Under the pieces are notes generated by a model, which was not told where the DNA came from, ran no database searches, and saw nothing but the letters and a program-made list of their open reading frames with translations. A stretch of 56,928 nucleotides of DNA, filler included, from Jimgerdemannia flammicorona (taxonomy: Eukaryota), in the NCBI GenBank assembly GCA_003990765.1. It is 2 parts of 2 records of this genome, joined end to end, with 100 filler letters (N's around TTAATTAATTAA, not from the genome) between each part and the next. Parts side by side here need not be neighbours in the genome. Positions count along the whole stretch, not along the records: positions 1 to 28,415 come from RBNJ01000562.1; 1 more part is not named here. One strand, written 5' to 3'. Position numbers and translations under genes: made by a program. How positions within the stretch are numbered: the first letter of the stretch is position 1; every line of letters begins with the position of its first letter. Positions 7,473 to 38,894 of the stretch are shown piece by piece.

Positions 7473-7720
7473 ATGAGGGGGCTCGCTCGAGACCACAGGT
7501 CAATGAATGCAGGAATGTCTTGAGTGTATAGTGCCTAAAATGTTTCAACACTATTGTTTGTCTAAGGCATTTCTAAATCAGGCGTAGTCTTTCCTTTTTT
7601 GGTACTAACATGATATGCACATTACTTCTATATGTAATTCTACCATTTACCCAATATTACTTTATATGTACTTTACACTTACGCTTTTGCACTTTCATAC
7701 ATTCATATGTATTTCATTAT
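7473..7720 (+). repeat. Split direct repeat A1
   Basis: Direct repeat of 12663-12910 (offset 5190); differences are mostly transitions. Confidence 0.9.
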
Positions 7721-7726
7721 ATTACC

Positions 7727-9180
7727 ATGATTCTCTCTGCAAATTCCTGCCTTTTGTGTCAATATGACCCTTCCCATATATCAAAGGGCCAACATGACCT
7801 GGGCTCTGCCACCTGCTCTTTCCACTCAGACGTTAATTTCATCAAGCATATGCTCTGCTTTCTGTAAGATGACCTGGAATCTGATAGTGAGAACCCCAAT
7901 ATTGCTATCCTTGTGGATTATCTCACCACTCTCCCTAATCACTCTACTTCTGCACCCTGCTGAATCACGCATCTATCAGCACATGCTACATCCAAGGTTC
8001 CCACTAGTGATATGGCAGCTGGACTAGTTTTTTTCAGCACACCAGCCTCTGATGTTTTCCATCGAAGCCAGTATTGCTCAGCTCCAAGAGCATGCATCCA
8101 CACAAGACTGTCAGTTCAATGAACTTTTTCAGCTTTTATGCTCTCTCCCCGACATCATATCTTTGGCAGCACCAGCTAGTGCAGTTCCTGCCATTTCTGG
8201 TCAGGACGTATCTCTCATCATCGATCAAGCCTTTATCGATCATGCTACTGCCTCTCTTTTGGCAGTTCTCACATCCCCATCCTCATTCCAGCTCTTACTG
8301 ACTATCCCTTTGGTTCAGTCCACCAGCATTCACAGCCCTGCTAGTAATCCCCAGGGTGAGTCTATCCCTATACCTCCTTCTGTCATCTCTGCCCATACCA
8401 TTGTCCGAGGCATCAATCTCTCTTTAAAATATGCCCATGTTAATTAACGGCTGTTGGTCATGGTCATTGACAATTCATTCACCACTGTATTGCTTGGCCA
8501 TTTCTTGGAGCGAAACATTGTTTCTATCGATGGTCTTTCTGATGCTCAATTCATCGAAACATTTGACAAATTGAGTGCTCAGATCATTCTTTGAAAGCCA
8601 CCATCTCTTATCAAAGATCTTCCAGATGTCTCTGCTTTCCTCACTGCTCTGCTTATGTATTTCAGTATCTTTATGATGTATACCTGGGTCTCACCAATCC
8701 TACTCCATTCTTTTCATATGCCATGGATTTTATTTACTATCAACATCATCATATTGGTCTGTGCTTCTTGATTATCATGTCTCCTTTTACACAAAATGAC
8801 TGGCAGAGATCGCAAACGATAGTGATTCTTTGGTATGGTGCGAGCACTGGGCCCAGCATAACCCTGACCTCTTTATGATCCTTAGTCTACATCAACATCC
8901 GTGAACTTTGACCTCTACATCTAATCTGCTTAAGCCCTTCAAGTCTCGTAATGTACAATGGGGGCTACATCTTACTGATGGCTCCTCTGCTCTATCTACT
9001 GAGAACGCCTCTCAATGGTCTACTTGTCAGGCATACAATGGTATTCTATTTGATGGATCACCCATGAAGGATCCTGGATGCAACAGAAAAGAATGCCCTT
9101 ATGTGCATTCCTGTTCTCGCTACAATGGTGATCATCTATAGTATCGATGCTCCCACAATCCATTGTCTCACCCCTAGGAA
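7727..9180 (+). pseudogene. gag: gag-like ORF of YR element
   Basis: N-terminal CLLCQ..H..KGQH..G..C motif; C-terminal Cys/His finger CQAYNG...GCNRKECPYVHSCSRYNGDH; stops present; end approximate. Confidence 0.65.
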
Positions 9181-9299
9181 CTCACCCCCATTTATTCTTT
9201 ACACATACCCCCGGCTGCTCCAAATACCCTACTCTGTCGCCCATTTACCACTCCTCTTAATGAAGCTGCTCAAGACATTCTATGTTGTTTTCCTCTTCC

Positions 9300-10860
9300 T
9301 TCTTCCACTCTTCACTCTGTTGCATAGGTGCATGAGCTTCAGTTGTATCCTGACCCACAGGTAGCTCAGACTGTCATTGCCACTATTACTCAAGGTGCTC
9401 TTCTCAGCTTTGATTGACCTTGTCGACACCTGCTGTCCTACAATCATCACTCCACTCTTGACCACCTGAAAGCAATTATATCTGACATCAAGTGGGAAGT
9501 CGCTGCTGGTAGAATTTGTGGCCCATTCTCATCTCCTTCATTTGAATGCTTTTGCTCATCTCCTCTCAGTGCCATCACGAAGAAGAATTCTAATAGTATA
9601 TAGCATCATATTTATGACCTTTCTTGGCCCCATCATGGCAATTTGGTAAATGCCAGCATAGATACTGACACCTTTTCGCTCTCTTACATTAAGTTCAATG
9701 AGGCTTTGGACTTGGTTCATTGTTTTGGCCAGAGATATCTTCTATCGAAGGTCGACCTCACCAATGTATATTGTCATATTCTCATCTATCTTACAGATTG
9801 GGAGTCGCTGGGTTTTGAGTGGTTGGGGCCATTTTATTTCAATTGGTTCACTCCTTTTGGCTCATCCTCATCACTATTTCTTTTCAACCTTTTCGCAGAA
9901 CTTCTTGCATGGATCGCCCACCATCATGACATATGCATGCTCATCCACTACATCGATGATTTTCTCCTCGTTTCACCACTGTTTCAGCCGTTTGCCCTCT
10001 CTGACCTACATTTACTTGTTGCCATCTGTCATCATTTTGACTGGTCAATTTAAGAGTGCAAGGTCGAAGGCCTCACAATATCACTCATCTTTCTGGGTAT
10101 CGAATTGGATACAATAGCTATAGAAGCCCACCTGCCTCTCAGTAAGCTTGACACATTGCTCGCCACTCTTCAGCAGTAGCTATCATACACATTATGTACA
10201 TGCCCTCAACTGCAGTCTCTTATTAGTTCCTTGGCATTTTCCTGTAAAATCATTCTGCTGGGCCACCCATTTCTGCAGTGGTTTATTGACCTTCTTTCTG
10301 GCAATGCCTCATTCCATATCTCACTGAATGAGGAATTCTATGCCAATATTCATTGGTGGCTCAAATTCCTACCCCACTGGAATAGTATTTCCATTATATA
10401 TCTGGTGGCATGGTTCCATGAGCCTGATGCACAATTATAGACAGACACCAGTGGGATCCAAGGCTTTGGTGCACATTTCAATAGCAAATGGTTTTCCACT
10501 CCCTGGCCTCCCAATACAGCCTTATGCGACATTTAGTTCAAGGAACTTTATGCTGTGGTCGCTGCCGCTGCTACCTGGGGTGCTCAATGGTGTTTTCACC
10601 ATATATTGCTTCATTCTGATAATCAGGCAGTCATAACTATTATCAACTCAGGCTCTTCATACAACCCTCTTCTGCTGGAACTTCTCCACCAGCTCTATTT
10701 TCAAATGGTGCATCACACTTTTCAACTTTGTGCCATATTCATCTTGATGTCCAATAATGGCATTGCTGATGCTTTATTCCATACTGATCTTCCTCATTTC
10801 TGTCATCTTGCCACTTATGCTCAGATGCTCCTGACCACGATTGGTATCATTTGCATTCTG
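9300..10860 (+). pseudogene. Reverse transcriptase / RNase H of YR element
   Basis: LSKVDLTNVY, PFG, HYIDDF (~9946), FLGIELD, TDTSG, FKELYAV, HSDNQAV, NGIADAL; in-frame stops; start approximate. Confidence 0.85.
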
Positions 10861-11790
10861 CACTTCCACCCATCATTATCTTCTTTTTGTGGTTCAGACT
10901 GGCAAAATCAACATGCCACTCATACTCTTTGGGACAATGCAGCTTCCTCCAATTCTGCAATCTCTATGGTAGTAATCATACCTCTGGCGGACCTTTGCCT
11001 GCATCCGAACTAGTGCTATTGCAGTGGGTCTGTAGCTTGGCCTTGCAACAGCTTCAACCATCCATAATTAAACATTACCTCCCAGCCATTCATTCTCTAC
11101 ACATCGACTCCGGCTTTGCCAATCTGTTCATTGGTCTTCACCAACTTCTCTGAGTGATGCATGACATGAAGCAGTGGCTAGACATATACCCAACTGGACC
11201 TCAGCTTCCTATCATGCTCGGTATTCTTCACAGTCTTATCAGTCTGCTTCGGCTATCTGATTATGACAATCTGCATCTTGTGACTGTGATGTCACTTACA
11301 TATGTCGGTTTTCTTCGCTCTAGCAAATTTATGTGGGACGGGTCTTTCGATCCTATTTCCCAGCTGTTTCACAGCTCTGTGGTCCTTCAACCTAGCATTG
11401 CCAACCCCACTCATATTATGCTCACCCTGCTGGCCTCTAAAATAGACCCATTTCACCAGAGTGCATTACTTTTTATCACCAAAACAGATTCTGCTACACC
11501 ATACATTATATCTTTACTTCATCTTCTTTACTTAGTGCACCTAGCCCCACCTGACACCTCTCTGTTCCAGTATTCTGCAAATCAATTGTTCTCTCAGGCC
11601 TATCTCATTAGTGGTCTTTGCATGTTACTTCCATGGATTAGTCTGAATCTGCTTCTTTATGCTGAGTATAGTTTTTGAATTGGTGTAACATCTGATACCA
11701 CTGCAGCCGGTTTATCCAATTACAAGATTCAGATGTTGAGTCGGTGGGAGAGCATGGCGTTTGAAGGCTATATTCACATGTCTATTTCTC
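10851..11790 (+). pseudogene. Tyrosine recombinase of YR element
   Basis: N-terminal SAM-like region (STCHSYSLG..F, IKHYL.AI.S.H), GFLRSSKF, SKIDPF, EYSF*IG (decayed HSFRIG), LSRWES, FEGYI. Confidence 0.85.
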
Positions 11791-11880
11791 ACATTCTCCA
11801 CCTTTGGGCATTGTTAACTCATAATACTTGTTCTGCTACTCATATTACTTGTGGTTAACAATTTTCCGTTCCTCTTTTTC

Positions 11881-12250
11881 TACCACATAGCCCATGACAC
11901 CAGCTTATTCCAGGTCCTGCGCAGTACATGACACCAGCCTTTACCTCTCCTCATTGACCTTACATTACCATGCAGCTCATGATACCAGCCTTTAATCCAC
12001 CCACCTCAGTCTCTTGCTACCACATAGTTTATGATACTAATCTTTTCTGATATTGTATGGCTCATGACACCGGCCCTCCTTCTTTTCATTATCATGCAGC
12101 TCGCGACACCAGCCTACTTGGACCCCCACACAACTTGCGACACCAGTTCTATCCCTTGATCGCTGGGCTCATTAAATCAGCTTCTTGGCTTTTGCATGAT
12201 TTGCGACACCTGCCCTCAGTTTTAACTGTGTGGCTCGTGACACCAACCAT
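11881..12250 (+). repeat. Array of ~10 copies of a ~24-bp motif (inferred consensus ACCGCGCGGCTCGCGACACCAGCC) with non-repetitive spacers
   Basis: GACACC-type cores at 11896, 11930, 11981, 12033, 12066, 12105, 12139, (~12172 degenerate), 12205, 12239. Confidence 0.8.
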
Positions 12251-12428
12251 ATCATGGACATTGGGCATGGCCTTTCTATTAAACCTTCAGTGCCTTTCTA
12301 TCTTCTACTCTGCTTACATTTCCACATCCATAACCCCCTTTTTACTTCATTTGGGCCAAGTTCTTTCTTTTGGTGCTGCCAACTCACACCACTATACATC
12401 ATCATTCCACACATTTTACATATAATAT

Positions 12429-13176
12429 TTGGGCTGGTCTTTTATACTGTGTATTTCCACCCATATACAAAACAATCAATCATTTATTTGAGGTTTCTTT
12501 CCTAGGATTTCAGAGTGATGTATGTTCATTTCAGTGATATGGAGTTATTGGTATTTTATTACGAAGATTGACATCACATGAGCATAGCATAGTTGATATT
12601 ATGCAAAACGTAGTATAGTTATGCCTCCCTAGTATAGATCGATATTACGGCAAAAACATTGAATGAGAGAGCTCACTCGAGACTACAGGTCAATGAATGC
12701 AAGAAGGTCTTGGACATATAGCACCCAAAATGTTTCAATGCCATTGTTTATCTAAGGTGTTTCTAAATCAGGCATAGTTTTTCCTTTTTTGGTACTAGTG
12801 TGGTATGTACATTACTTCTATATATAATTCTACCATTCACCCAACATTACTTCATATGCACTTTATATTTATGCTTTTGCACTTCCATACATTCATATGC
12901 ATTTCATTATCACCCACCTCACCCTAAATATATATATATAATGGTTGGGCTGGTCTTTTATACTGTGTGTTTCCATCCAAATACAGAACAATCAATCATT
13001 TATTTGAGGTTTCTTTCCTAGGATTTCAGGGTGATACATGGTCATTTCGGTGACACAGGGTTATTGGTGTTTTATCATGAAGATTGACATCACATAAGCG
13101 TAGCATAGTTGATATTATGCAAAATGTAGTATAGTTATGCCTCCCTAGCATAGATTGATATTACAGCAAAAACATT
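12429..13176 (+). repeat. 3' split repeats B1 (12429-12660), A2 (12663-12910), B2 (12945-13176)
   Basis: B1/B2 offset 516, both end in CAAAAACATT; A2 matches A1. Confidence 0.9.
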
Positions 13177-14950
13177 AATTATAAAGATATAAAAAACAAA
13201 TAGAGAAGCAGCTAAAGGTTCTGCTAAAATTACAGATTTTTTTAAATATATAAATAGTAAAAATATTGAAAATGAAAATGAAATTGAAATTGAAATTGAA
13301 AATGGAATAGAAAATGAAATTGATATTGAATATTTATCTGATGAAGATATTAATTATCAAGTTGAGATTAAAAACATTAAAGAAAAATTAACAGAACTAA
13401 ATATTAATAATCAATTAAAAGTAAAATTAATGGTACTTATTCAATATTTAAGATTAAGACAAATTGGTTATAATATTACTAAAGCAAGTATAACTGTTAC
13501 TATTAGTTTAGGATGGAAAGCTTGGAGTATATATCATATTATAAGTTGGTCAAAAGAATTATTTAAAACTCAATAACTTTCTTTATCAAAATAAGGTAAA
13601 TATATAAAAATTAAATGTTTATTAACTCATAAAGATATTTATCTTAAAGTTTTACAATATCTTAGAGAATATAAATTTGATATTACACTATTATTACTTC
13701 AAAAATATATTAATGAAAATATTTTACCTTTATGTGGAATTTCAAAAACTATTCATGAACATACAGCTCAAAATTGGTTAGAAAAATTAGAATGGATTTT
13801 AAGTGAAGTTAAAAAAGGAATTTATTATAATGGACATGAAAGAGAAGATGTTTTAAAAAATAGAATAATATTTTTAAATCAAATGAGTATTTATGAAAAT
13901 TTTTTAATAACATTTGATGAAAATGTTATTGAAATATTATTTCATCCTGAGCTTGAAATTAATGAAAAACATCATGTTTTTATTACTCATGATGAATCAA
14001 TTTTTTTTTTCAAATAATAGTAAAAAATTAATTTGGTATCCTCAAGATGAAATGCCTTTAAGAAAAAAAGGAAAAGGATGTGTATTAGTGATAAGTGAAT
14101 TTTTAACTAAAACAATTGGATCTTTACATTTAAATAAAGAACAACAATTATTATTTTCTAATATACGTAATATATTTAAAGAAACTATTAGACCAGGAGT
14201 TAATGGAGATGGTTGGTAGACTGCTGAAGATATTGTCAAACAAGTAAAAAATAAAGCAATTCCTATTTTTGAAATTATATATCCTGGTTGTATTGCAGTT
14301 TTTACCTTTGATAATTCAATAGAACATCAAGCATTTATAGAAGATGCTTTAAATGTTAATAAAATGAATTTAAATTGGGGAGGAAAACAAAAAAATTAAG
14401 AAATACAATTTTAGAAAATGGTCAAATACAATTTATAAATTTTGAAGATAATTATTTTGAAGAAGAAAAAAGAGATCAACCAAAAGAAATAAAAATAATT
14501 TTATAAGAAAGAGGATTATGGAAAGATAATTTATTAAAAACTTGTCAACAATATATTAAAAATGAAGAAAAACATTTAAGAAATAATTGTTGTGCACAAA
14601 GAATTTTAGAATTACAACCTGACTTTCTTAATCAAAAATGTATGCTTGAGGAAATTATTACTAAAGCTGGATATAAAGTTATTTTTTATCTAAAATTTCA
14701 TTGTGAACTTAATTATATTGAGATGTATTGGAAAGCTGCAAAATTATTTACAAGAGAACATTGTGATTATACTTGGAATAGTTTAAATGAAACTGTACTC
14801 CAAGCTTTAGATAGTATTAAATTAGCAACTATTCATAAATATGCTAGAAAATCTTTTAGATATATGGATGTATATTATCAAGGATTAACTGGAAAAGCAG
14901 CAGAATATGCTGTAAAAAATATCATTCTCACCTTCACATTCCTAATATAG
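13177..14950 (+). pseudogene. DDE transposase (ITm-like, long D-to-E insertion)
   Basis: GHEREDV, THDES (D 13991), KKGKG..VISEF, DGW, FDNS (D 14310), CCAQR, KFHCELNYIEMYW (E 14720); frameshifts and stops. Confidence 0.8.
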
Positions 14951-15107
14951 AAATATAAATAAATATTCAATTATTTTATATCTTATATATCTCTTATTTA
15001 TTTTATATTTTATGTATCTCTTATTTATTTTATTTATCTACTTTATCTATCTTGTCTATCTTATTTGTCTTATATTTTGTCTTATTTATTTTATCTATCT
15101 TATATAT

Positions 15108-15777
15108 TATAATGTAGCAGATGCTTACTCTTGAAAGTACGTCGGATTTCTGTATCTTGAAAACTTGACTGTTCTGACTCTCGCAGAGTCTCTTGAAGCG
15201 GCAGGGGAGGTGGGTGAGTTTGAAGTGTATCTGCCCACAGGTTTACTAGTTCCTTTGCTATCTCTTTACTTTGAACTATTTCGATCTGAGGTTTATTTAC
15301 TTGAAGATACTGGGTTATTTATACAAGTTTGCTAGCTATTAGAGGGTGGCTAAGTAATAAATGAGTCATTTGGACTTTGTCGAAACATTTGGACAATGTC
15401 TAAATACTATACTAAATCGAGGTATTTGATTTGGATAATGTCTAAAATTTAGACAATGTCTAAGGATTTAGACAATGAAGCTGAGTCAAACTAAAGTTAC
15501 AGATCATGAAACTGAGTCAACTTGAAGTTACAGAATACAAAATATATAAAAATGAGACCTTACTAATTAGAACTGAAAGTATATATGTATACTAAATATA
15601 TTATATGTCAAAATAGAGAACTGCAACAAACTAAATAACAACCATAACTCTCAAATATATATTCAGCTAATGTCGAAATTGAGGACTGCTAACTATAAGG
15701 CTATACTACTTTGGGAATGGGTGCGATCAAGTGTCTATTCCCTATTTCCTTCTTCCTAATTCGGCTATACTGTCACA
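15108..15777 (-). repeat. 3' LTR of Gypsy-1 (~670 bp)
   Basis: Matches 21556-22030 except for 195 extra bases (15478-15672); preceded on the minus strand by PPT AGGAGGAAGT (15778-15787). Confidence 0.95.
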
Positions 15778-15814
15778 ACTTCCTCCTGAATGGATGGTCT
15801 CATCCCTGAGGCAT

Positions 15815-16276
15815 CTATTCAAACTCCCAGGCTTCAACGGTCTGTATGGTCTTATACTGTGCAATTTGCTGCATGACTGTCTCCCAATGATGTCTTCTCA
15901 CTTTCTCGAAGTTGGTAGGAGTTACTCCTCTCAGGTGGTCTATCGCTGCTTTATCTTCTCGGAATAACTTGTGGATCCTTTTGGCAATAGTGATCTGTGA
16001 GTGGGAGAGTTGACACTTGGCAATCCAGTCCTCCTTGGTCTTTACTGGATCCTGATTGAGCACCTGTCCAAGCTTGAAGTACTCTTGGAATTTTGCCCGA
16101 TATTGATAGGCTCTAAAGTGTGAGATCTGAGAGAGATGAGTCTGCACAATACTCTGAATATCCTCATAAAATGGCTCTATGGTCGGGGGCTCGGTGGTGT
16201 GCCATTGTCTTTTGATGGCTCTTTGGGCAGCACTAGTGATCTTGAGTGCCATCGCAGTACTTTTGTTACTGGCCAT
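15815..16276 (-). CDS. Accessory ORF3 of Gypsy-1, 153 aa, unknown function
   Basis: Intact ATG-to-stop ORF between integrase and PPT; ATG overlaps the integrase end (..KKYHGQ*); homologous to the 3' ORFs of Gypsy-2 and Gypsy-3. Confidence 0.75.
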   Translation of the reverse strand: MASNKSTAMALKITSAAQRAIKRQWHTTEPPTIEPFYEDIQSIVQTHLSQISHFRAYQYRAKFQEYFKLGQVLNQDPVKTKEDWIAKCQLSHSQITIAKRIHKLFREDKAAIDHLRGVTPTNFEKVRRHHWETVMQQIAQYKTIQTVEAWEFE

Positions 16277-17459
16277 GATATTTCTTGAGTCGGTTTCAGT
16301 GAATAGTGGTGGAGATTATTGTGCCTGAGGGTTTTCGTAGCCAAAAGGTGGTTCCTTTTATATCTTGCACAAGGTAAGGTCCTTCCCACTTGGGCTCCAG
16401 TTTTCATGACCATGAAGCTTCTACTATATTCCAATATACCAGGACCTTGTCTCCTATCTTGATAATCTCCAGGGGCTTGTGGGTCTTTTCCGCATTCCTC
16501 CATTGCAGTGTCTGTGCCTTGGTAATGTAATCCTCAGCCTTCTTCCTAATTTGGTGTAGTCTCCGTATTTCTATGTCCACATGTTTCCATACAGCATCTC
16601 CATTGGGTGATAGGGTTCCTTGAGAACATTCTTCTCCAAATAGCATTTCTCAAGGGGTAAAGTGGGTACTTTGTGATCAGATATCCCGGAGAGCAGATAA
16701 TGCTATTGGCAGATAGTGATCCCAGTTCTCGTAGTTATCACAGATCTTGGCGATAACATTCTTGAGGGTTTTGTTGGTCCTTTCTACTTATCCATTTCCT
16801 TGAGGGTGATATGCTGTGGTCTGAATATGCTGAATCTTATACTTCTTGTAGAGAACTTCGAAGAACTGGTTCACAAATTCTGTTCCTCTATCTGTGGTTA
16901 CTTGTGTTGGGGTCTTGAATCAGCAGATGATTTCCTTGTGGAAGAAATCGGTGATTGACTGTGTATTGGCTTCCTTGAGGGGTCCTGCTTCTATCCACTT
17001 CATAAAAAGGTCTACAATGATGATGATGTATCGGTTGCCAGTCAAAGTCAAGGGTAGAGGGCCAATTACATCCATTGCAATGTGAGCGAATGGTACTGGT
17101 TCTATGTGTGCTGACCCTGGAGCTTGATTTCGTTGGTCTTGTTTCTGTTTCTGGCATTTGTCGCATGTCCTGACAAATTGTCTGATATCTTCCTCTATCC
17201 CTGGCCACCATATTGTTCTTCTTGCCTTGTCATATGTATTCGTTCCTCCTAGATGGCCAAGTTCATGTACTGATTTCATTGCTTGCTCCTTCTTGTGTTC
17301 GGGTATAACTAGTAGTTTTCCTTTCTTCAGTGTTTCTCTGTCAGTTTTGAATTGTTTCCATGTCCTGTTGATAATCGTTTGTGTCCATTCTTCCAGATGT
17401 TGGGGCATCTTTCGCTGTCTCAGGTATGTGATGATTCCATAGTAGAGTTTCTTATTCAT
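16266..17459 (-). pseudogene. Integrase of Gypsy-1
   Basis: HELGH...CDKC zinc finger, IAMDVIGPL, VDLFMKW core, WEGPY C-terminal motif; in-frame stops. Confidence 0.9.
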
Positions 17460-20436
17460 AATTGCTTTGTTGGTTGGAGGTAGTTCGAGGTGTCTATGAG
17501 AGAGCATCTGCATTGGAATTTGTTCTTCCAGGGCGGTACACGATAGTTACATCATAGGCTTGTAACTTCATTATCCATCTGGCGTAGATTCTCTTGGGTT
17601 GTCCAGTTGTCAGTAGCCAGGTAAGAGCTGAGTGGTCCGTCTGGATGGTGAAGTGTCTTCCAGCCAAGTAGTAGTGGAACTTTTCTATAGCCCAGATGAC
17701 TGTGAGGCATTCCAACTCGTAGGATTCATATTCTTTTTCAGCTCCTCAGGTTCCGTGGCTAAGATATGCAATGACATACTCCTTTTTGTCTTCTTTTTGA
17801 GCTAGGACTGCTCCTAGTCTCTGTGCACTTACATCCGTCTGAAGGATTAATTCTTGGGTCCAATTGGGTCGTCTGAGGATAGGTGCCTGGGTCAGTCTAA
17901 CCTTGAGTTCGTCAAATGCTTTTTGTTGTCTGCCAGTCCACTGGAACTTGGTATCCTTCTTGTTGAGTTCATAGACTGGGCCTGCGATGTTGGAGAATCC
18001 TCTAATGAATCTGCGATAGTAGGAGGCGAGTCCCATGAAGGCTTGGGCTTCTGTAACAGTTGTGGGTCTTGGGTATGCTGCCACCACTTGTATCTTGAGG
18101 GGGTCCATGTGTGTTCCATCTTGATTGATAATATGGCCAAGATAGGAGATCTCAATTTCTGCAAACTTGTACTTCTTGGGTTTGATATGAAGGCCATGTT
18201 GTCTTAGTCTTTCCATTATCTGCTGTATGTGCTGCAGATGTTCCTTGGCTGTCTTGCTGTAGATGATTACGTCATCGACATAGACCATCATCCATCTTCC
18301 CATGTCATAGTGGAAGATTTTGTTCATCATTCGCTGAAAGCTTGCTGGTGCATTGCACATTCCAAATGGCATTTGTAGATAGATGTAGGTTCTGTCAGGG
18401 GTGATGAAGGCTGACTTTTCACTTGCCATTTCTGTGAGTCCGATTTGGTGGAATCCTGAGTATAAGTCCAAGGTGCTGTAGTACTGTGCTTCATCTCCCA
18501 GTATTATAAGAATGTCGCTGATGAGCAGCAGTGGTTGGCAATCCTTCTTGGTGACTGCATTGAGCTTTCTGTAGTCAACACAGAGCCTTGGGGCAAATTC
18601 TCCAGGTTTGGTTCCTTTTTTCGGGGCTAGTACAACTGGTGAAGACCAGGGGCTGCTGGCTTCCTTGATGATACCAGCTTCTTCCATCTGCTTGATTTCT
18701 TCTCTGAGCCACTCTCGGTAGGCTGGTGGGACAGGTCTTGCCTTCTGATAAATTGGTTCGGTGTCTCCAGTATCTACCTCATGATAGTAGTGTGGGGTCT
18801 TTCCCTTGATATCCTTGAAATCTGTGGCAAGGACATCCTCAAATTTGTGGAGTATTTTCTTGAGTTCCTCCTTGAGTGGGAATTCATCTCCAATGGTGTA
18901 ACTGTGCTTGCTCATGTTTTCCTCCTTCTTATGCTCGAGTTCGGTAATCTTGGTGCTGGTGAATATTCCTCTTCCTGTGGATCCGAATCCTTTCTTTCCT
19001 CTTTTCGTTTCCTCCAGATTCTTGACTTCTATGATCCTTGGCTGTATGATTGGGAAGATCAACATTTGTACCAATTGGTCCTTCTTCTTGACTAGGAATG
19101 GAATTGTAGGATTGTGGTTCCTAGCAATGAGTAGAATTTCTCCAGTATAGTCTGAATCAATGACTCCTCCTTCGATTGTGATTTCGCTTCTAGCCAGGCT
19201 GCTTCTTGTCTTGAGAATCCCGACATGATCCTTTGGGATGGTCATCTCTAGTCCAGTTGCGAGTAGGGTGGTTGTCTGGGGTTCGAGTACAGTTTCTTCT
19301 ACTGTAGCGATGTCTATTCCAGCTGCGTTTCCTGACTTGTATTCTGGCAAGACTGCATCAGGGTGGATCTTTTGAATCTTGACCTTGATTTCTTCATCAT
19401 CACTATCCTCCAGGAGGGCTGGTGGTTCATCATCTTCCTCCTTCTCTTCTTCTCTGATCCATTTTTCAAGAGCTTTCTGCCTTCTTTCCTGATAGATCTT
19501 CTTGGTTCCAATGGTGCACTGGTAGCAATCATTGACATGCTCCATACAGTACATCTTGATTCCATGAGGACAGACTCCTTGTAGGGTATAGCCTTCTGCT
19601 ATCTTCTTGCACCATTCTTCTTCACTCATCCATCCGACTTTCTTCTTCTTTGGAGTAGTCACCATATAAGCTTCCTCTTGCTTGCTCTTTTCTTCCTCCA
19701 TATCGGGCAGGACTCCTTTGTTGATATTGATGGGAATTTGTATCTTCTGTCCCCGGTAGGTAATCTGCATCTTCTGAGCATTGAGATCGATTACCACCTT
19801 GGCTTTGTGAAGCCATTGATTGCCGATGAGGATGTCATAGTTGGTGGCATTGGTTATGATTATATCTACTGGGATTATTACTCCTCCGATCTTGATGAGA
19901 ACATCTCAGATCTTTCTCAGAGGTGTGGCTCTTGTGCCATCGGCTGTGACAAATACTAGCTTAGTTGCTTCTTCCACATCCCAACCTAGGTGGTCTGCTG
20001 CCTTCTTACTGAGGAGACATCCTCCTGCTCCTGTGTCGATGATGGCTTCAAAGACTCGATCCTCAATTTGGCATGTTGCATAAGCAGAGGTTTTGCGATT
20101 GTCCTCACTTTCTTCTCCTGAGTCCTCTTGAACATTATTGGCCTTGGTTATCTTCCATCCTTGTTCCTTAGTTGTTTCGGCAAGTCCAAACCTCGTTTGC
20201 TGTCTGAATGTGGGGATTTCTGCGAGCTGACCAAAGGTTGCATTGACCTTTTGTTGACTGAGATCCTTGAAGATATCATACTTGAAGGTCTTGGTCTTGC
20301 AAAGTTTCTTTTCTTTTTCTCCTTTGCTGGCTGGAGTAGTTCCTCGGATGATATCTTGAACTGCTTGCTCCAGCTCGATATCCTGGTCCATCTCTTCAGC
20401 TTGGCTTTCTGTGTCAGTTTCCATCCACTTTTCCAC
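17452..20436 (-). pseudogene. pol: pol of Gypsy-1: aspartic protease, Cys/His module, dUTPase, RT, RNase H
   Basis: IIDTGAG; CPHG..DCYQC; dUTPase; RLCVDYRKLN, MPFGMCNAP, YVDD; QTDVS, ELECL, TDHSAL, NADALS. Confidence 0.95.
18973..19389 (-). other. dut: dUTPase domain inside Gypsy-1 pol
   Basis: All five trimeric dUTPase motifs: AGIDI, RSS, GVIDSDYTG, LVQ, RGKKGFGSTG. Confidence 0.92.
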
Positions 20437-20559
20437 TGGGTTCTTCTTGGGTCTTCCTGGCGGTCTCTTGTAGGGTTCTTTGCGAACATCCTTCTTGGTG
20501 GTCTGAGCAGGATAGGCCTCCCATTCCTCTTCATCGGATTCTCCAATTTCTTCAAAGGT

Positions 20560-21543
20560 GATTGTATTGGCCTGCTCCTTGTTTCATGTGGCATTGCTTG
20601 GTTGAGCCTTGCATTTGGTTTCACTCATACATTCATAGGAGTAGTGGCCTTCTTCTCTGCAACTGTAGTAGGTACCTTTCTTCTTGTCTGAGGTGGCGGC
20701 AAACTTCTGAACAGGGTGGCAATCTCTTCCTCGGATTTCTTTTACCACATCTCCCAGGTGGGTAGTCATTTCCGCAAACCTTTTGGTGAGTTCCTCCAGA
20801 GGGTCACTGTTCTTTTGCTGCTCTGTAGCTTTTGGCTGAGGTGTGTTTCAATTGATCATTGTGGTGGGGATCACACTGATTGCCTTGGGTGCCTCGATTC
20901 TGACTCCTGTAACTCTCTCCATTGTATGGTCTTGTGGGTGTCTGGCTATCCAGTATCGCTGAGCGTAGGTGACCTTCTGTGGCAGATCCAGAATCACTGG
21001 TGATGAGTGGATGGCCATGGCTATTTCTGGATGGACTCCTTTCATGAAGGTTACTTCAGCCACTTGATCTTGGATAGCAGCAGCATAATCTGCAAGGATT
21101 ATCTGATATCGAATTCTGGTATAGAATGTGTTTGGATCCTCGCTCATTTCTTGGTATGTTGTGTTGAGCTGATCCTTCAGGGCTTGCTTGATCTTGTCTG
21201 TGTAATATGTATTTCGGAGCCAGGTCTTCTGTGCTGTCAGTATAGCATCCGCATCATTTCCTGCATGGGTTGCAGCTGTGAATGCTGCTCTGGCAGGACC
21301 TCATAGGCTGAAGGGCATGAGGGCTACTTGCTATGCTGCTGTCAGGGTCCTTACAGTGGCATACTGCTCAAAATCATCAATGAAGGTGATGATTGATTCA
21401 TCTGAGGTATATCCATGGAATACTGGTGGTCTCATATCCATCTTGTCTGGGTATTGGGGCTCAGTTTGTATGGTTGTTTGGGTGGTGGCAGTTGTTCGTT
21501 GTTCAGCTTGAAAGTGAGGGATTTGTCTTGAATCATCAGCCAA
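20560..21543 (-). pseudogene. gag: gag of Gypsy-1
   Basis: PPVFHG..SIITFIDDFE capsid-like start, EDPNTFYTRI, FMKGV, zinc knuckle YYSCREEGHYSYEC (first Cys mutated); stops. Confidence 0.8.
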
Positions 21544-21552
21544 TGGGCACCA
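21541..21552 (-). promoter_or_regulatory. Primer-binding site TGGTGCCCATTG (resembles a C-to-T mutated tRNA-Lys-type TGGCGCCC)
   Basis: Immediately follows the 5' LTR on the minus strand; tRNA identity is inference. Confidence 0.6.
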
Positions 21553-21555
21553 AGT

Positions 21556-22030
21556 TATAATGTAGCAGACGCTTACTCTTGAAAGTATGTCGGATTTCTG
21601 TATCTTGAAAACTTGACTGTTCTGACTCTCACAGAGTCTCTTGAAGCGGCAGGGGAGGTGGGTGAGTTCAAAGTATATCTGCCCACAAACTTACTAGTTC
21701 CTTTGCTATCTCTTTGCTTTGAACTATTTCGATCTGAGGTTTATTCACTTGAAGATACTGGGTTATTTATACAAGTTTGCTAGCTATCAGAGGGTGGCTA
21801 AGTAATAAATGAGTCATTTGGACTTTGTCGAAACATTTGGACAATGTCTAAATACTATACTAAATTGGGGTATTCAATTTGGATAATGTCTAAAATTTAG
21901 ACAATGTCTAAGGATTTAGACAATGTCGAAATTGAGGACTGCTAACTATAAGGCTATACTACTTTGGGAATGGGTGCGATCAAGTGTCTATTCCCTATTT
22001 CCTTCTTCCAAATTTGGCTGTACCATCACA
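21556..22030 (-). repeat. 5' LTR of Gypsy-1 (~475 bp)
   Basis: Direct repeat of 15108-15777 with a 195-bp deletion; begins TGTGA on the minus strand. Confidence 0.95.
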
Positions 22031-29827: not shown

Positions 29828-31294
29828 TGTAACATATCTGGCTCAATGGAGGCAAATTACAATGTTCAGGGTAGGTGTAGTTTGGCTTGAGCCCCCAGTT
29901 TCTTTGTTAAAAGCAACAAAATATTCTTGGTATTTAGTGATATAATAGTTAAAGCTAGATATCTGCAAGTGATTTGTATGTTGATTTCCTAATTGGGATG
30001 GTTCTCTGGATGTAGCAGTGATTTGTATATCTTTTCTTCTTGGGTCAACTGGGAATTGGTGGAATTTCATATATAGCATGACAGATTCCTTATATATGAT
30101 AATCTGGCAATTTAGCAGTTTCCTTCTTAGATGATGGTGATCTTCAAAAATATGCAATTTCTGGGTGATGGTCTTGATGTGATAATCTCTGTATAGTATA
30201 GTGATCTCTGTATAGTATGACAATTTCCAAAAGTATGTGATTTCTGGCAGATAACTCAATTTGGCACAGCTTCTTCTCACTGGGAATTATACTGATAGCA
30301 GATTCTTCTATATTGGCTCACTGGAAACAAATGAATAACTTAGTGGCAAGTAACTTAGATAACTCAAATATTATGGATTTTTCCTGAATCAGTGGGCTTC
30401 TGGAAATAATAACTCAGGTGGTGCAGATTCTTTCTAAATCAGCAGTTTTAACTGAGAATGCAGATAACTTGAAAATGGCAGATGATATGGATTCTTCTGA
30501 ATCAGTGACTTTCTGGAAAATAGCTCAGATGGTGCAGATTCTTCTTGAATCAGCAGACTTCTTCTTGAAGACAGCAGCTTCAACTGGTAATTAACTGGTG
30601 GCTTTGGAAAAGAGTCTCTTGGCAAAGTTGTATCAAAGACTGGCTTTGTATGTGCAAATGGATTACTGTAAAGTTGTGTCAGAAACTGGCTTCATTTGTG
30701 TAAATGGATCACTGTGAAGTTATGTTAGAAACTGGCTTGAGCAAGGTAGCTTTCACTTAGACTTTCTGGGAATATAGTGAATAACTTGAAAATGACAGCA
30801 AAGTTCTTTCTTGAACTTGGTGGCAAACTTCAGGCTTATCTGGCAAGTGAACCAAAAATGTAACAAATTCTTCTTTGTATCAAAAAGTAGACTAGAGTGA
30901 AAAGGAATGCTTTGCTCACAATCTCCTAGCAGTGGCTCTAGAGTTTCTCTCGAAGTATAGTAGGCAGACTTGACTTTTGCTTTGAATTCAATTCGGACTG
31001 AGGTTTATTCACTCTTGTCTCTGGGGTAATTTATACAATTGTGGTTGCTTTAGATTACTACATTGCTAATTATAGATTACTATCTATGGCAAGTATGCAG
31101 GTCTTGTATAGGTGTGCAGGTCTTACACGGATGTGCAGGTCTTGCACAGGTATGCAGGACTTGCACAGATATATCTTATCTGGTAGTCTGGCTATTTATA
31201 CAGCTTTCCACAGCAATGGTTGCTGGTTACTATGCTATGTATTTATATCATCTGGCTAAGTTATAATTCAGGTGGTATGTTTTGATTTGTTACA
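29828..31294 (-). repeat. 3' LTR of Gypsy-2 (~1.47 kb), with internal 19-bp and AAGAATCTGC-type repeats
   Basis: Direct repeat of 38895-40196 with indels. Confidence 0.9.
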
Positions 31295-31334
31295 TCAGCC
31301 CTCACTAAAGAATGGTCTGTCCTCAGGCTATCCT

Positions 31335-31913
31335 TTAGTCATTATCTCAGTGTAGATAAGCATCTTCTGCATCAATACCTGTTCCATTATCTTCATCATC
31401 TGTACCATGGTTACTCTATTCCAGGGGTTCTTCTTCTTCTTCTGAAAATAGGATTTCGATAGCATTGATGATGCTCAGGTAGGTGGCCAAGTTCATTCTT
31501 TGCATATCCCACCAGGAGAATTGTACTTATAACAAGGCTGCAGGATTATATTTGTAAAGAGTATAGAGTCTGTCTATAGCAGTGATATCTCTTCTTGATA
31601 GTCCTATAGTGCTTTGGATATATGTTTATTCTGGGACTGGGAGGTTCCACAATTGTTCTCCAATTACATAGTGGGCCTGAAGTTGGTGGATCTGTAGCAA
31701 TCATCTGGCCAGGACAAGATTCTCTTGATGAATCTGAATTTTTTGGAGGGTAGTCCCATTGATTTCTCGAAATTGGAGTAGAGGAACTAGCAGTGATTGA
31801 AATGAGCTAAGGACAAGAGTCTGGAGGTAGTTGTCAACTCTCTGATTCATGATGTAGGGGAAGATATATCTTGAGGTAATTTATGTATACTGGTGTCTTC
31901 AAAGTTCATCCAT
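31335..31913 (-). pseudogene. Accessory ORF3 of Gypsy-2 (193 codons, in-frame stops)
   Basis: Manual translation in a single frame: MDEL*RH...LQAHYVIGEQLWNLP...GLSRRDITAIDRLYTLYKYNPAALL*VQFSWWD...EEEEP; the stops look like single transitions from CGA/CAA/TGG. Confidence 0.75.
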
Positions 31914-31919
31914 CCATGC

Positions 31920-34900
31920 TTTTTAAATAGATGCTGGTTCCTCTGATATTGTATATAAGATAAGGTCCTTCCCATTTGGGTTCCAATTTGGCAGCAAAAT
32001 TTGTTTCAATCATGCTTCTCCAAACTAGTACTTGATCTCCAATCTTGATCTTCTGATCCTTCTGTTTCTGGTTATAATACTTCTTTTGTCTTTCTTGGGC
32101 TTTGATAATCTGACCTCAGGCTTGACTATGCAACTGTTCTGCCTTCTTGAGGAGGTCTCTGGGATTCTCATGGTCAGCAGTTCTGATTTTCTTAACAAAC
32201 ATCATTTCGAATGGCTTTTGTTTAGTAGAGGCAGTAGGAATGTTCCAAATTTCCCATAGGATCTCAGGTAGGCAGAGATCCTAATTGATAGGATTGACTT
32301 GGGCAAGTCTTTTCTTGATGGTCTGGTTCATTCTTTCTATCATGCCATTGGTCTGAGAGTGGTATGATGTAGTCTGTTTGAGGTGGATATTGTGAATTTG
32401 GACATAACTTGTGATTATATTGTTGATGAATTCTGTGCCTCAGTCAGAGATGAGTTCTTCTGGGAGTCCATATCTGAGTGTGAGTCCATAGAGAAGGTCT
32501 ACAATGGTTAAGGCATCTGCACTTTCCATTGGGAAAGCCTTGGGCCACTTGGTCAGATATTCTATAAATACAAGAATATATTTGTTTCTTCTTAGTGTAA
32601 CTGGTAGAGGTCCAATTACATCTATTTCCCATCTCTGAAAGATGTTGTCTGGTGGTGTGATTAGTTGTAATGATGCTTGATAGTTCTTCCTTCCTTAGTA
32701 CTTCTGGCAGATGTCATATTTCTTGAGTATGTCCCAGACTTGTATTCTGAGGTTGGGCTAATGTTGGTATGTTGTTTGCAGCTTCTCTTCTATATTTGCC
32801 TATCCCTGGTAGGCTTTCTGATGTTCTTTTTGGATGAGATCTTCTTGTGCCTTAATAGTCTAAGGAGCTTCCTTTAGGGTGTAGTTCCTTGGGACACCCT
32901 TCTTCTAGTTTATTAGGGCTGGCAGGAAAGTACATCAACATTGTTGTGAGCTTTTCCTGCTTTGTTGATGATAGTAATTTTGTAATCCTGAAGGATAAGG
33001 ATCCAGTGAGCTAGGATTCTGGTGGGTTCCTTGTGATTGAATAGTCATTTGAGGGCTATATGGTCTGTGATCAGAGTGAACCTTTTTCTGATGAGATAAT
33101 GCTTGAACAGAGTGACCACCTATATGACTGTAAGGCATTCCAGTTTAGTGCTACCATAGATCATCTGCTACTGATTGGTAGCTCTGCTTATATAAGTTAT
33201 CACATGGTATTATTGATTAGGTTCTTCTTGGGCTAGAACTGCTCTGAGGCCATCTTTATAAGTATCTGTATATAAGATAAATGGCTTCTGTATATTGGGG
33301 TGCACAAGGATTGGTACTGTAGTCATGTAGTTCTTGAGTTCTTTGAAGGCTTTTTCTTGTGATTCTGTCCATTTGAATGGCACTCCTTTCTTGAGAAGGA
33401 TTCAGATTGGAGTAGCAATTTGGATAAAATCCTTGATAAACCTTCTGTAGTAGGATACCAGTATCAGAAATGATAATATTTCCTTCAGGGTCTTGGGTAC
33501 TGGCCAATTGTTGATCTTTTCAGTTTTCTTTGGGTATATGAGTTCCTTCTTTTGAAACTATAAATCCAAGGAATTTGAGTTTCTGTTTTCCAAAGTAGTA
33601 TTTCTTTGCATTCAGTCTCAAGTGGTTCTTGTAGGTGAGCTTGAAGAATTCCTCTAGGTGGTGCAGGTGTTCTTTGAAATTTACTGAATAGATGTTGGAA
33701 TCGTCCATATATACAATTAGGCAGTAGTGGATCAAGGGGGTATAGACTGAATTCATCATCCTCTTAAAGGTGTGGGGTGCATTGCAAAGTCCAAAGAGTA
33801 TTCAGAGGTATTCAAACAATTTTCCTAGAGTGAGGAAGGCTGTCTTTTGAATGTCTTTGGAGTCTATGAGGATCTCATGGAATCCTGTTAAGAGGTCCAT
33901 ACTGCTGAAGTATCTGGTAACTTGTAACTGATCCAAAAGGTCATCAATTCTGGGCAAAGGATAGGCATCCTTTTTGGTGACTGAATTGAGTTTTCTGTAA
34001 TCCACACAGAGTCTCCATCCTCCTTTCTTTGGTACAATATGTATAGGGCTGGCCTAGAGGCTGGTAGAGGGTCGGATGACTCCATTGTCTAAGAGTTCTT
34101 GAATGTGGTCCTTTTCAAATATTTTCAAGTGATGGGGTATTCTATTAGATTTCTACCAGATGGGTGTTACATTTCCTGTATTTATGCTGTAGTAATATGA
34201 TGGGTTATATTGCAGATTGCCATAATCAGTAGTGAAGATATCTTGATATTTATTGAGAAGTTCTACTAGTTGTTACTGTTGTGGAGGTGTCAGTTCTTCT
34301 CCAATATTGGTGGAAGGCTTCACTGTCTCCTGGGTTACAGAGGGGCCTTTCCTTTCTTCTGGGACCTTTTGCTGTTTCCTGATAAGTTTAGTTCATAAAC
34401 TTCTCTATGAGTTTGACTGAGAAAAGGCACCAGATATCCTATAATGATTCCTTTCAGTAAGATAATAGTTTCCCAACTTTGGTTGGTTGCTCCAGAGTGT
34501 ACTGGATTTATCTTGTCAGAGAATGTGTGTCTCTCTATGTCTAGGTGGGGGATATCTTCCTTGGGTTCAAAGAAAAGGTTTCTGGGGTCAGGTGGTGCAA
34601 AGATTTCGAAAGTAGTTTGTTCTCCAGGCTCTAGGATGAGATTCTTGTACAGTTTGACTGGTTGGTAGTACACCTGCTGGGAGACATTCCTTTTGAGGTG
34701 GTTGACTTGAAGGAGATATACTTCCTTCTTATCTGAACTTCCAAATCCTTTGGCTTGTCTTGTCCCTTTAGTCAATTTGGAGACTTCTTATAATTGTGGA
34801 GTTCTGACCTTCAGGAAGACTGCTTGGGCAATCTTTTGTCCTCTAATATTTGGTACTATTCTGTACTACTATTGTGTAGAATGACCTTGATTTCACCTAT

Positions 34901-37100: not shown

Positions 37101-37279
37101 TTTGTCTCAGGAACAAAAGGTGAGGGGGTTTGGGGAGGTGTTTCTACCTACTCTTCTTCATGTTCTTTATCTTCTTTTTAGATGATTCTTCTGCTGATAT
37201 TCCTGGATGGCCTTCCTACAGATCTCTTCCTTTTCTCTGCTGAGTAGACTGTTTTTAAGGTAGTAACCTTAGTAGGGTA

Positions 37280-38860
37280 TAAGTCTAGGTCACTGTAGTC
37301 TTTACTATTGCTTGCTTCCTCGAAATCTTCAACAGGATGGGCTTCAATCTTATTGTACTGAGTGTCATTCCTTCAGTTTGGTGGTTCTGAGTCTCTTCAG
37401 TCACTTCTTTTGTTGTCACATTCAGTAGCATAGTGTCTGAATTATCCACAGTGGAAGCATTGGACTTGTGCTCCATCTCAGACAGGGTACCTTCTTTCTT
37501 CTTGCTAGTAGCTCCTATTATCTCTTGGTGGATAACCTTGGCTCCTCTGTGGTAGGTATCCTCTGTTGTAGATATCCTCTATTGTCTTGGTAGCTCCAAT
37601 TTTCATGTGTGGTGAGTTTTTCAATCTGTCCAACCAATCAGTCCAACTTGGAGCTGAGGTCTTGGATTTCACTTCTGTTCTTCTTTCCTTCTTTGGCTGG
37701 CCTTCTTTCTTCAGATATTTCTTATCCTTAAAGGAGTCCTTATAGGGTTTTGACCAGGATGTCTTCTTTATCTTCTTTCTTGTCATGATTGCTCCAGGTA
37801 GTTTCTTGTCTGATATCAAAGAATCCTTGAGCTACATCTACTTACTCTTCAGACCTTCTGATGCCTAGGGTGTGGACATGCTGAGCAATGTTTGGGGGAA
37901 TCCCATTCATGAAGGTCATTGGTCCTATGATGTCCTGGTTGGTGACATTGAATCTGGCAGTATGCATTCTCCTCTGGATTCTTGTGAAGAAGGCTCTGGG
38001 CAATTCTCCAAGATTCATCTTCATCCCTATGATAGATTCTTGGGCCTTGTGGCAGGTTTCGTTTCCTGCACACTTTTCAATGAGCCAGTGGACCATGGCT
38101 ACATATTCTAGCTCATAAGACATTGCTGCCTATATCTGTCTTGCCAGTTCTGAATTTGGGTCATTTACTGTTTAGTGAAAAATTCCTCTGACTTGTTCTC
38201 TGAGCTGAGCCTTGTAGATAGCGATTTTTCTTTTATCTGAGGGATTCCTCAGAGCTGCAATTCCTTCAATTCCATCAAGGAATTCTCTGGGGTCTTCCTC
38301 TGGGTATCCTGCAAAGGTTAGCAATGAGGTAGCCATTTCATCATCACTTTTTTCTGATTCTAGTTCTGGTTTGGATTCTGATTCTGATTCACTTTCTGAG
38401 CTATCACTGGAGATAAGGGTGCTTGGGTATCCTGAGGATGGTGTTCTTGACCTTGGATGAAGTAGAATGAGCCTAGGTATTCTTGTAGGAGCTATTTCTA
38501 ACTCTGTAAGGGCTTGTGGTAAAGGTTCTATTGGTGAGATTGATGAGACCAGTATGGGATGTCTGGCTGTAAGATCTCAGGCTTATGTAATAAGATCTTT
38601 TAGTTCTTGTGCAAGTTCTTCAAAATCTCCAACAGAGCTGCCTGTGTTGTCTGGTTGATCTGGTTGGAGATTTCGGGCTGTACTGCCTTCTGGTTCTGGT
38701 TGGGATCCTTCTGATGCTGGATAATTAGTAAGTCTTGATATGATTACTTCTCTTCTTGTCCAAATGCTGGTGATAACTGGTTCTCCTGTAGTGGCAGAGA
38801 TTGGTGTTGCATCAAATGTATCCAGTTTGACTGTGGGTTCTTAGGAGCTGAAAAGTCATG
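37280..38860 (-). pseudogene. gag: gag of Gypsy-2
   Basis: FAGYPEEDPREFLD, FMNGIP, zinc knuckle CFHCG*FRHYATEC; boundaries approximate. Confidence 0.8.
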
Positions 38861-38894
38861 TCGATTTTGAAATCTTCCCAGTTGAGCCCTCAAA

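Follow-up and report, generated by a model that had tools for sequence, protein, structure and literature searches.

Three Ty3/Gypsy-type LTR retrotransposons were identified by their LTR direct repeats in the window, that is, the whole 56,928-nucleotide stretch of Jimgerdemannia flammicorona DNA that was analyzed. Gypsy-1 occupies positions 15107 to 22030 on the minus strand, where direct repeats and Pfam searches delimited gag, PR, dUTPase, RT, RNase H (RH), and integrase (IN) regions together with an additional gene, ORF3. Its two LTRs (15107 to 15777 and 21555 to 22030) share 95.6% identity. The Pfam domain order RVP/Asp_protease, dUTPase, RVT_1, RT_RNaseH, Integrase_H2C2, and rve, found in Gypsy-1 and also in a relative carried by the metagenome contig L001 (see below), assigns both elements to Ty3/Gypsy (Metaviridae), and Pfam detected no chromodomain in either. 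Gypsy-1 is a dead element, with ~13 stops in its ~1725 gag-pol codons. A premature TGA in the integrase frame (16296 to 16298, minus strand) falls inside the conserved C-terminal motif IH-x-NRLK-x-Y and is a private C-to-T change of Gypsy-1, the codon being CGA in L001. A near-palindromic 17-mer is repeated in the Gypsy-1 LTR, and TTAGACATTGTCYAAAT repeats are present in the LTR. Outside the element, tandem ORFs with protein kinase domains were found at 798 to 2792 of the window, and the nonrepeat DNA has a low GC content.

ORF3 of Gypsy-1 (15815 to 16276, minus strand) is intact, starting with ATG and extending over 153 codons plus a TAG stop, and represents what is here called family 1. It lies where it had been predicted, between the end of integrase and the PPT: a 37-nt purine-rich spacer (15778 to 15814, minus strand) with the purine tract AGGAGGAAG, partly conserved in L001, Gypsy-2, and Gypsy-3, separates its stop codon from the 3′ LTR. 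The integrase ORF upstream (16266 to 17459, minus strand) begins with ATG and is shifted by +1 with respect to the ORF that extends from gag to RNase H. At the RNase H/IN junction (17452 to 17459, minus strand; ATGAATAA), the gag-to-RNase H ORF ends in a TAA that overlaps with the ATG of integrase, and L001 has an identical eight-base sequence. A comparable arrangement was found at the other end of integrase, where the end of pol and the start of ORF3 overlap at 16266 to 16276 on the minus strand (ATGGCCAGTAA), with the ORF3 ATG at 16274 to 16276 and the pol stop TAA at 16266 to 16268. Here, ORF3 is read in frame +1 with respect to integrase, and its ATG has A at −3 and G at +4. Gypsy-1, L001, and Gypsy-2 are the loci for which DNA context is available, and in all of them ORF3 is located directly 3′ of integrase. 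Its ATG follows the conserved LK-x-Y integrase end motif by one to five codons in the +1 frame, A occupies position −3 in all three junctions, and the pol stop lies 11, 44, and 17 nt past the A of the ATG in Gypsy-1, L001, and Gypsy-2, respectively. The N-terminal extension of one database relative, P0017, corresponds to an alternative frame of an integrase GPY/F region. From the two overlaps it follows that three ORFs are chained in the element, each shifted by +1 against its predecessor.

The other two elements carry family 2 of ORF3. Gypsy-2 is located at 29828 to 40196 on the minus strand (LTRs 88.4% identical), and Gypsy-3, a deletion derivative of the Gypsy-2 family, is located at 46141 to 54003 on the plus strand (LTRs 88.6% identical). 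The original prediction had placed an ORF at the equivalent position in both; the position was correct, but both copies are decayed and the start in Gypsy-2 had to be moved. The interval first assigned to it, 31335 to 31913, is a single reading frame with eight in-frame stops, and homology with intact relatives beginning MNQR or MTQR sets the true start at 31850. The Gypsy-2 ORF3 (31335 to 31850, minus strand) is thus contained in one frame, with five in-frame stops within 171 codons and a terminal TAA, and is 78% identical to P0014, an intact protein of 171 aa. In Gypsy-3, an internal deletion extends from the start of RT through RNase H and integrase to about codon 35 of ORF3, leaving a remnant (52210 to 52617, plus strand) of codons ~36 to 170 with three internal stops, directly 5′ of the same PPT and LTR. 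When an ORF3-family profile was searched against the six-frame translation of the window, three sites were recovered (domain E values, 2e−50, 3e−42, and 7e−33; next best, 0.24); as the three window copies or close relatives sit in that profile, this result shows the absence of a fourth site only.

The elements that harbor families 1 and 2 are very distant from one another, the family 1 and Gypsy-2 elements sharing ~38% identity in RT, 45% in RNase H, and 30 to 35% in integrase. Direct similarity between their ORF3s is weak. A TBLASTN search of the window with the Gypsy-1 ORF3 gave its best non-self match exactly at the Gypsy-2 site, with an E value of 0.51. Comparison of family 1 with the decayed family 2 copy using hhalign returned a P value of 0.015, and this improved to 0.0021 with a family 2 alignment consisting of four intact relatives of 137 to 172 aa and the decayed copy, in which stops were written as X. 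When 1.84 billion representative proteins were searched with a profile, only five matched at an E value of ≤0.001, in line with a restriction of ORF3 to these elements. One of the five, P0013 (165 aa; BLASTP E value of 8e−11 against the Gypsy-1 ORF3), seeded a third family of 11 sequences, represented by proteins only. P0012, a 455-aa repeat protein with an E value of 3.5e−8 in the representative search, was rejected as spurious, having a score summed over six repeats and weak matches to many unrelated Pfam models.

Family 3 bridges the other two. Using hhalign, it aligned with family 1 at an E value of 1.7e−11 (probability, 97%) and with family 2 at an E value of 4.4e−7 (probability, 93%; 97 columns), and all alignments among the three families share one register, which is also that of the alignment of families 1 and 2 made by eye in the original prediction. 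In column-shuffle controls (100 shuffles of the family 2 alignment), scores against family 3 averaged 12.7 with a maximum of 20.4, compared with the observed 48.3, and scores against family 1 averaged 12.4 with a maximum of 19.4, compared with 26.1; none of the 100 shuffles reached either observed score. The reversed family 2 alignment scored 13.7 against family 3 and 10.1 against family 1. Two independent AlphaFold models placed helices at residues 60 to 75, 81 to 88, 92 to 106, 109 to 115, 120 to 125, and 128 to 140 in family 1 and at 34 to 68, 72 to 81, 86 to 101, 103 to 109, 113 to 118, and 121 to 132 in family 2, and these six predicted helices coincide after the hhalign offset of six residues. 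In the ESM Atlas, families 1 and 2 both ranked the same unnamed 127-aa cluster first (0.95 and 0.93); further neighbors common to both (Translat_reg, DUF6192, and Closter_coat) were not informative. Given the bridging family, the shuffle controls, and the coinciding helices, the three ORF3 subfamilies are demonstrably homologous. The gene is therefore, as had been proposed, common to two deeply divergent families of dUTPase-bearing Gypsy elements.

To establish whether ORF3 is maintained as a coding sequence, copies were compared for selection. A word-indexed search identified seven close homologues of the Gypsy-1 ORF3 (55 to 80% identity), although such database homologues are gene calls and their intactness is biased by ascertainment. 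A scan of JGI metagenome contigs identified L001, a 6.5-kb contig with a nearly intact family 1 relative in which a single ORF of 1281 codons runs from gag to RNase H, the integrase ORF is interrupted by one stop, and ORF3 has 153 codons. The ORF3s of L001 and Gypsy-1 are 65% identical in protein and 66% identical in DNA sequence, with no indels. Differences at the first, second, and third codon positions number 38, 27, and 88 (pS, 0.82; pN, 0.21), giving a pN/pS of 0.26 in frame versus 1.1 and 1.5 in the two other frames. Between the same two elements, pN/pS was 0.23 for gag, 0.25 for PR-dUTPase-RT-RH, and 0.19 to 0.22 for integrase. Two decayed family 2 copies gave 0.43 in frame versus 0.68 and 0.91 out of frame. 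As the value for ORF3 is close to those for gag and pol, purifying selection has acted on ORF3 as a protein, about as strongly as on the essential genes of the element. This agrees with the original view of ORF3 as a maintained lineage-specific gene; a dN/dS near 1 had been named as the outcome that would speak against it, and the ratio, calculated as pN/pS, is not near 1.

It is exceedingly improbable that ORF3 is a chance ORF or a nonfunctional leftover. The openness of the Gypsy-1 copy taken alone is not significant, because at ~13 stops per ~1725 codons a stretch of 153 codons would stay open by chance with a probability of ~0.3, and stop-to-stop ORFs of at least 120 aa are common in the window (n = 46). 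Against this reading stand the frame-specific synonymous excess between copies that are 34% divergent in DNA and the existence of three homologous subfamilies with intact members; the frame-specific pN/pS of Gypsy-1 and L001 in itself refutes this reading. ORF3 is thus very likely a real, selected, element-encoded accessory protein.

Over nine members, the ORF3 protein is 153 to 172 aa long, and it is predicted to have a ~80-residue core of six helices between a poorly predicted N terminus and an acidic C-terminal tail. AlphaFold confidence was modest, with a mean pLDDT of 59 for family 1 and 54 for family 2 and values of 65 to 77 in the core. Conserved core positions include EFQ-x-Y-x-x-G...N, L-S/N-x-R-E/D-x-T-x-A-x-R-h-Y-x-L-F/Y, and A-L-x-H. 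In families 2 and 3, the net charge of the last third of the protein is −11 to −18, while the family 1 tail is short, with one tryptophan and, in its final 30 residues, a net charge of −1 to −2. A tryptophan occupies the third or fourth position from the end in every full-length member (phenylalanine in one sequence) and is flanked by acidic residues (EAWEFE, Y/HWDDD, and DEWDL/V). Families 2 and 3 share a second, upstream acidic-tryptophan motif (EEPLVWS and DEPLIWID, aligned by hhalign), located 20 to 28 residues from the first.

Several searches for membership in known families were negative. No membrane segment was found, the highest 19-residue Kyte-Doolittle mean in the nine members being 0.03 to 1.03; this hydropathy window, which also underlies the absence of a signal peptide, and the small size of the protein fit the earlier assertion that ORF3 is not env. 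The assertion that it is not a chromodomain likewise held, with the chromo model matched by none of 19 members. Pfam returned no family for the Gypsy-1 ORF3 at an E value of ≤10 and nothing consistent across the 19 members, and models for SGNH/GDSL or DEDD exonuclease domains had no match among them. Searches of PDB sequences using hmmsearch found no relative (best E value, 0.016, to a Helicobacter helical protein). The proposed Foldseek comparison gave no match at an E value of ≤0.001 in PDB or BFVD, and a structure search of the ESM Atlas with P0014 gave TM values of 0.37 or less. Prediction of a homodimer from two ORF3 copies scored 0.01 against a mark of 0.32.

The original prediction had also likened ORF3 to the DUF1016_N domain, the N-terminal domain of YhcG, on the strength of a pattern resemblance (Y-x-IG-x-x-L ... 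LS ... R ... Y), and distant membership in that family would account for the resemblance. However, PF17761 was matched by none of the 19 members at an E value of ≤10, whereas E. coli YhcG, the positive control, matched at 7.5e−38. Comparison of the 19-sequence profile with E. coli YhcG as a single-sequence template using hhalign gave a P value of 0.32 and a probability of 0.2% over 18 columns outside the motif. The likeness was therefore not upheld, and membership is very unlikely. A different lead came from structural searches, in which model 1 matched KorB, SopB, Spo0J, VirB, and P1 ParB at Z scores of 3.0 to 4.1 and model 2 matched SopB at 4.0 to 4.1, in a range (below 8 to 13) that VIA-align describes as common for helical models. 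The homologous core of both models aligned with the helix-turn-helix of SopB from residue 157 or 158, with Z scores of 3.8 and 4.1. The sequence-profile comparison with SopB (hhalign P value, 0.037; probability, 1.4%) took a register other than that of the fold match, pairing ORF3 residues 93 to 124 with SopB residues 163 to 194, whereas the fold alignment pairs residue 63 with residue 157. The resemblance of the predicted core to ParB/KorB/SopB is thus a lead and not a family membership.

Parts of the window were contained in nine sequencing-run entries from seven studies, mostly soil metagenomes, with shares of 0.05 to 0.23; none of the entries was an RNA data set. In the contigs of four such runs the ORF3 family was abundant, with 1920, 313, 92, and 65 pieces. 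Among the best-supported differences listed, one falls in ORF3 (16093 T>C) and changes K62 to E, the usual residue of the family. In viral contigs scanned with families 2 and 3, no member was confirmed. The occurrence in soil metagenomes, the tandem kinase-domain ORFs, and the low GC content of the nonrepeat DNA would suit a soil-dwelling fungal host whose kinase families have expanded.

Extra ORFs downstream of pol have been described in other dUTPase-bearing elements. As described by Rodriguez et al. (2017; PMC5408684), the Juno, Vesta, and TelKA LTR elements of bdelloid rotifers bear a dUTPase, are without a chromodomain, and carry diverse ORF3s, the products of which are fusion proteins resembling env, small proteins with transmembrane segments, GDSL esterases, or DEDDy exonucleases. 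By that description, they resemble the present elements in that the dUTPase lies between PR and RT, the integrase is of the GPY/F kind and lacks a chromodomain, and pol is followed by an extra ORF that differs from family to family, but the ORF3 described here has no membrane segment or Pfam match and is common to lineages whose RTs are ~38% identical. Some fungal Gypsy elements are drawn with an "additional ORF with unknown function" in the main text of Novikova et al. (2010; PMC2864245), where dUTPase domains are also reported in basidiomycete elements; the elements with the additional ORF differ from the present ones, by description, in bearing a chromodomain, and that main text offers no sequence, family, or selection analysis of the ORF, which might conceivably belong to the ORF3 family. 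Excerpts of Muszewska et al. (2011; PMC3248453) make no mention of such an ORF. A full-text literature search, in which the "add. ORF" of Novikova et al. was represented by its main-text description alone, found no account of the ORF3 protein family; the match to an already described Gypsy accessory protein that had been raised as a possibility did not emerge from the texts covered. On the texts covered, ORF3 is a previously undescribed protein family in a known type of slot, that of the extra LTR-retrotransposon ORF, with an unusual overlapping-ORF layout.

Taken together, the small size and solubility of the protein, its predicted helical core and acidic tail, its place before the 3′ LTR, its restriction to elements, and a constraint like that on gag and pol lead us to infer a trans-acting regulator or adaptor. 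Our preferred explanation is that ORF3 is an accessory gene of a chromodomain-less, dUTPase-bearing Ty3/Gypsy clade and encodes a soluble protein of 150 to 170 aa that acts as a trans-acting regulator, most likely one resembling a transactivator; we give this reading as a whole a probability of roughly 40%. The core would bind a component of the element, whether LTR DNA, genomic RNA, or an element protein, and the acidic, aromatic tail would recruit a host factor. In the transactivator-like form, which ranks first among the functional readings but is itself tentative, ORF3 would regulate element expression in trans through a DNA-binding core and an acidic activation tail. The foamy-virus transactivator, a small regulator that is neither enzymatic nor membrane bound, is encoded between pol/env and the 3′ LTR. 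ORF3 may be considered similar in position and logic, and its predicted helical core followed by an acidic C terminus would be compatible with a DNA-binding transactivator. Foldseek against PDB and BFVD and hmmsearch against PDB revealed no relationship, in sequence or in fold, between ORF3 and regulatory genes of complex retroviruses. The acidic aromatic tail and the near-palindromic 17-mer repeated in the Gypsy-1 LTR are compatible with a transactivator; conversely, ORF3 matched no DNA-binding family. The designation of the tail as an activation domain is weakest for the Gypsy-1 copy, owing to the short, weakly charged family 1 tail with its one tryptophan.

Other functions could be proposed for the same features, and either role suggested in the original prediction, a nucleic-acid-binding regulator or an anti-silencing factor, may apply. 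ORF3 might antagonize host defense: tryptophans exposed in its acidic, probably disordered tail would form a short linear motif through which a host protein is bound and RNAi or chromatin silencing of the element blunted. Accessory genes of complex retroviruses are often defense antagonists and Argonaute partners use tryptophan-binding pockets, and such a role would suit a gene that is under selection yet matches no enzymatic or structural family and that retains one or, in families 2 and 3, two acidic-tryptophan motifs. However, bulky hydrophobic residues surround the upstream tryptophan (PLIWID and PLVWS), which is not typical of glycine/serine-rich hooks, and family 1 has one tryptophan only, so that we consider an anti-silencing factor rather unlikely. 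Tryptophan-acidic C-terminal motifs are also used by cargo adaptors and actin-nucleation factors, and ORF3 is conserved together with gag and pol; a structural or trafficking cofactor that binds Gag, the particle, or the preintegration complex and links it to host transport or assembly through the tail would be in keeping with both. This is improbable given that the tails do not fit the motif patterns of kinesin light-chain binding and that ORF3 has no similarity to the Gag of its own element (hhalign of the 19-sequence profile against the 433-aa L001 Gag-PR; P value, 0.3 over 11 columns).

The overlapping layout raises a further alternative, namely, that programmed +1 frameshifting appends ORF3 to the C terminus of integrase, where it would serve as a targeting or tethering module in place of the missing chromodomain. 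Ty1 and Ty3 both use +1 frameshifting, and the elements described here are without a chromodomain. In Gypsy-1, Gypsy-2, and L001, the end of pol overlaps with ORF3, which is in the +1 frame, and in both family 1 copies integrase is shifted in the same way against RT/RNase H. Selection on integrase in this frame implies that these elements have some means of expressing a +1 ORF. Set against this, the ATG at the start of ORF3 is conserved in every family, with A at −3 in the junctions; an in-frame stop lies only 13 codons upstream of that ATG; and inspection by eye found no +1 shift site or shift-prone codon pair common to Gypsy-1 and L001 in either overlap. Expression as an integrase extension is accordingly held to be of low probability, in the same range as the trafficking role. 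For a free-standing ORF3, as the regulator reading supposes, the template could be a subgenomic or spliced RNA, or ribosomes could restart at the pol stop. In fungal RNA viruses, stop-restart gene junctions take the form AUGA or UAAUG. The present junctions, ATGAATAA and the overlaps of 11 to 44 nt at ORF3, would be alike in having an AUG that overlaps or abuts the upstream stop, but the ORF3 overlaps of 17 to 44 nt, deduced from DNA, exceed the classical tetra- or pentanucleotide in length.

On a broader and still speculative view, these may be "complex" LTR retrotransposons that possess a regulatory or counterdefense gene, with a helical core that would recognize the element and a tryptophan-acidic tail that would hijack the transcription machinery or a silencing protein. 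Integrase and ORF3 would then be produced from the +1-overlapping chain of ORFs (gag-to-RH, IN, and ORF3) by termination-coupled reinitiation or frameshifting, and ORF3 would be the first accessory regulator family for the retrotransposons of a probable soil fungus.

LTR retrotransposons are known to carry additional ORFs, the majority of which resemble env, encode enzymes, or lack an explanation; selection that spans deeply divergent families of elements has been demonstrated for few of them. That the ORF3 family has no relatives outside elements and is constrained like gag and pol indicates that the elements need it. The conserved junctions, in which an ATG lies over a stop, make their expression strategy directly testable. 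Should ORF3 prove to transactivate, to counteract silencing, or to act as a targeting module linked to integrase, it would reveal the way in which Gypsy elements lacking a chromodomain handle their host and would also supply a new protein fold or motif.

In Gypsy-1, an LTR retrotransposon at 15107-22030 (minus strand), and in its nearly intact relative on the 6.5-kb metagenome contig L001, the integrase was encoded as an ORF of its own in the +1 frame, an unusual split of pol. The TAA that closes the gag-to-RNase H ORF was overlapped by the integrase ATG within the sequence ATGAATAA (17452-17459, minus strand, in the window; 4597-4604 in L001). This overlap was kept in both elements, two copies only ∼70% identical, and selection acts on the integrase in its +1 frame. 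In the Gag of L001, an acidic stretch ending in EEWE (1518-1553, Gag residues ∼250 to 260) was located directly after the zinc knuckle; it resembled the acidic tail of ORF3, the accessory ORF between integrase and polypurine tract (PPT), by composition only.

Comparison of the window copy of Gypsy-1 (15100-21550) with family contigs from four metagenome runs identified differences that were overwhelmingly transitions. For run X1, these comprised 154 A>G, 163 G>A, 134 C>T, and 113 T>C changes, with 2 to 21 transversions per type. The stop codons interrupting ORF3 of Gypsy-2, a family 2 element, were TAA, TAG, or TGA and fell at positions occupied by Q, R, or W in intact relatives. Gypsy-3 (46141-54003), from the same family as Gypsy-2, was an internally deleted derivative that still carried gag, PR, and dUTPase. 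At its deletion junction the first RT residues were fused to codon ∼36 of ORF3, and therefore the 3′ part of ORF3 and the PPT were kept.

A further repeat-flanked unit on the plus strand (7473-12910) is probably a decayed retroelement different from the others. It carried 248-nt direct repeats lying 5,190 nt apart (85% identity), 244-nt repeats at 12417 and 12933, a weak RVT_1 match (9604-10053), and a strongly negative GC skew. The very AT-rich stretch at 13000-15000 (22% GC) held several ORFs of 100 to 147 amino acids without a Pfam match; one of them appeared, by eye, similar to the end of a DDE transposase. Two adjacent plus-strand ORFs (798-1343 and 1923-2792) each encoded the C-terminal half of a protein kinase domain (Pfam PK_Tyr_Ser-Thr, with E values of 1.7e−5 and 7.6e−11); they may be pseudogenes or a pair of kinase genes in tandem. 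Two long tandem arrays were also found, at 42747-43636 (period, ∼68 nt) and 43720-44307 (period, ∼18 nt).

The 3′ LTR of Gypsy-1 carried ∼195 extra bases (15473-15669; repeat offsets of 6448 versus 6253) relative to its own 5′ LTR and to one metagenome contig of the family, which skips this segment. Each Gypsy-1 LTR also contained 4 to 5 copies of a 17-nt near-palindromic motif, TTAGACATTGTCYAAAT (15368-15465 and 21816-21932). With both strands counted, 15 matches were identified against 0.78 expected, 14 of them within these two LTRs; the motif was absent from the LTR of L001, of which only part is present on that contig. TTAGACATTGTCYAAAT is a candidate site for binding of a dimeric factor.
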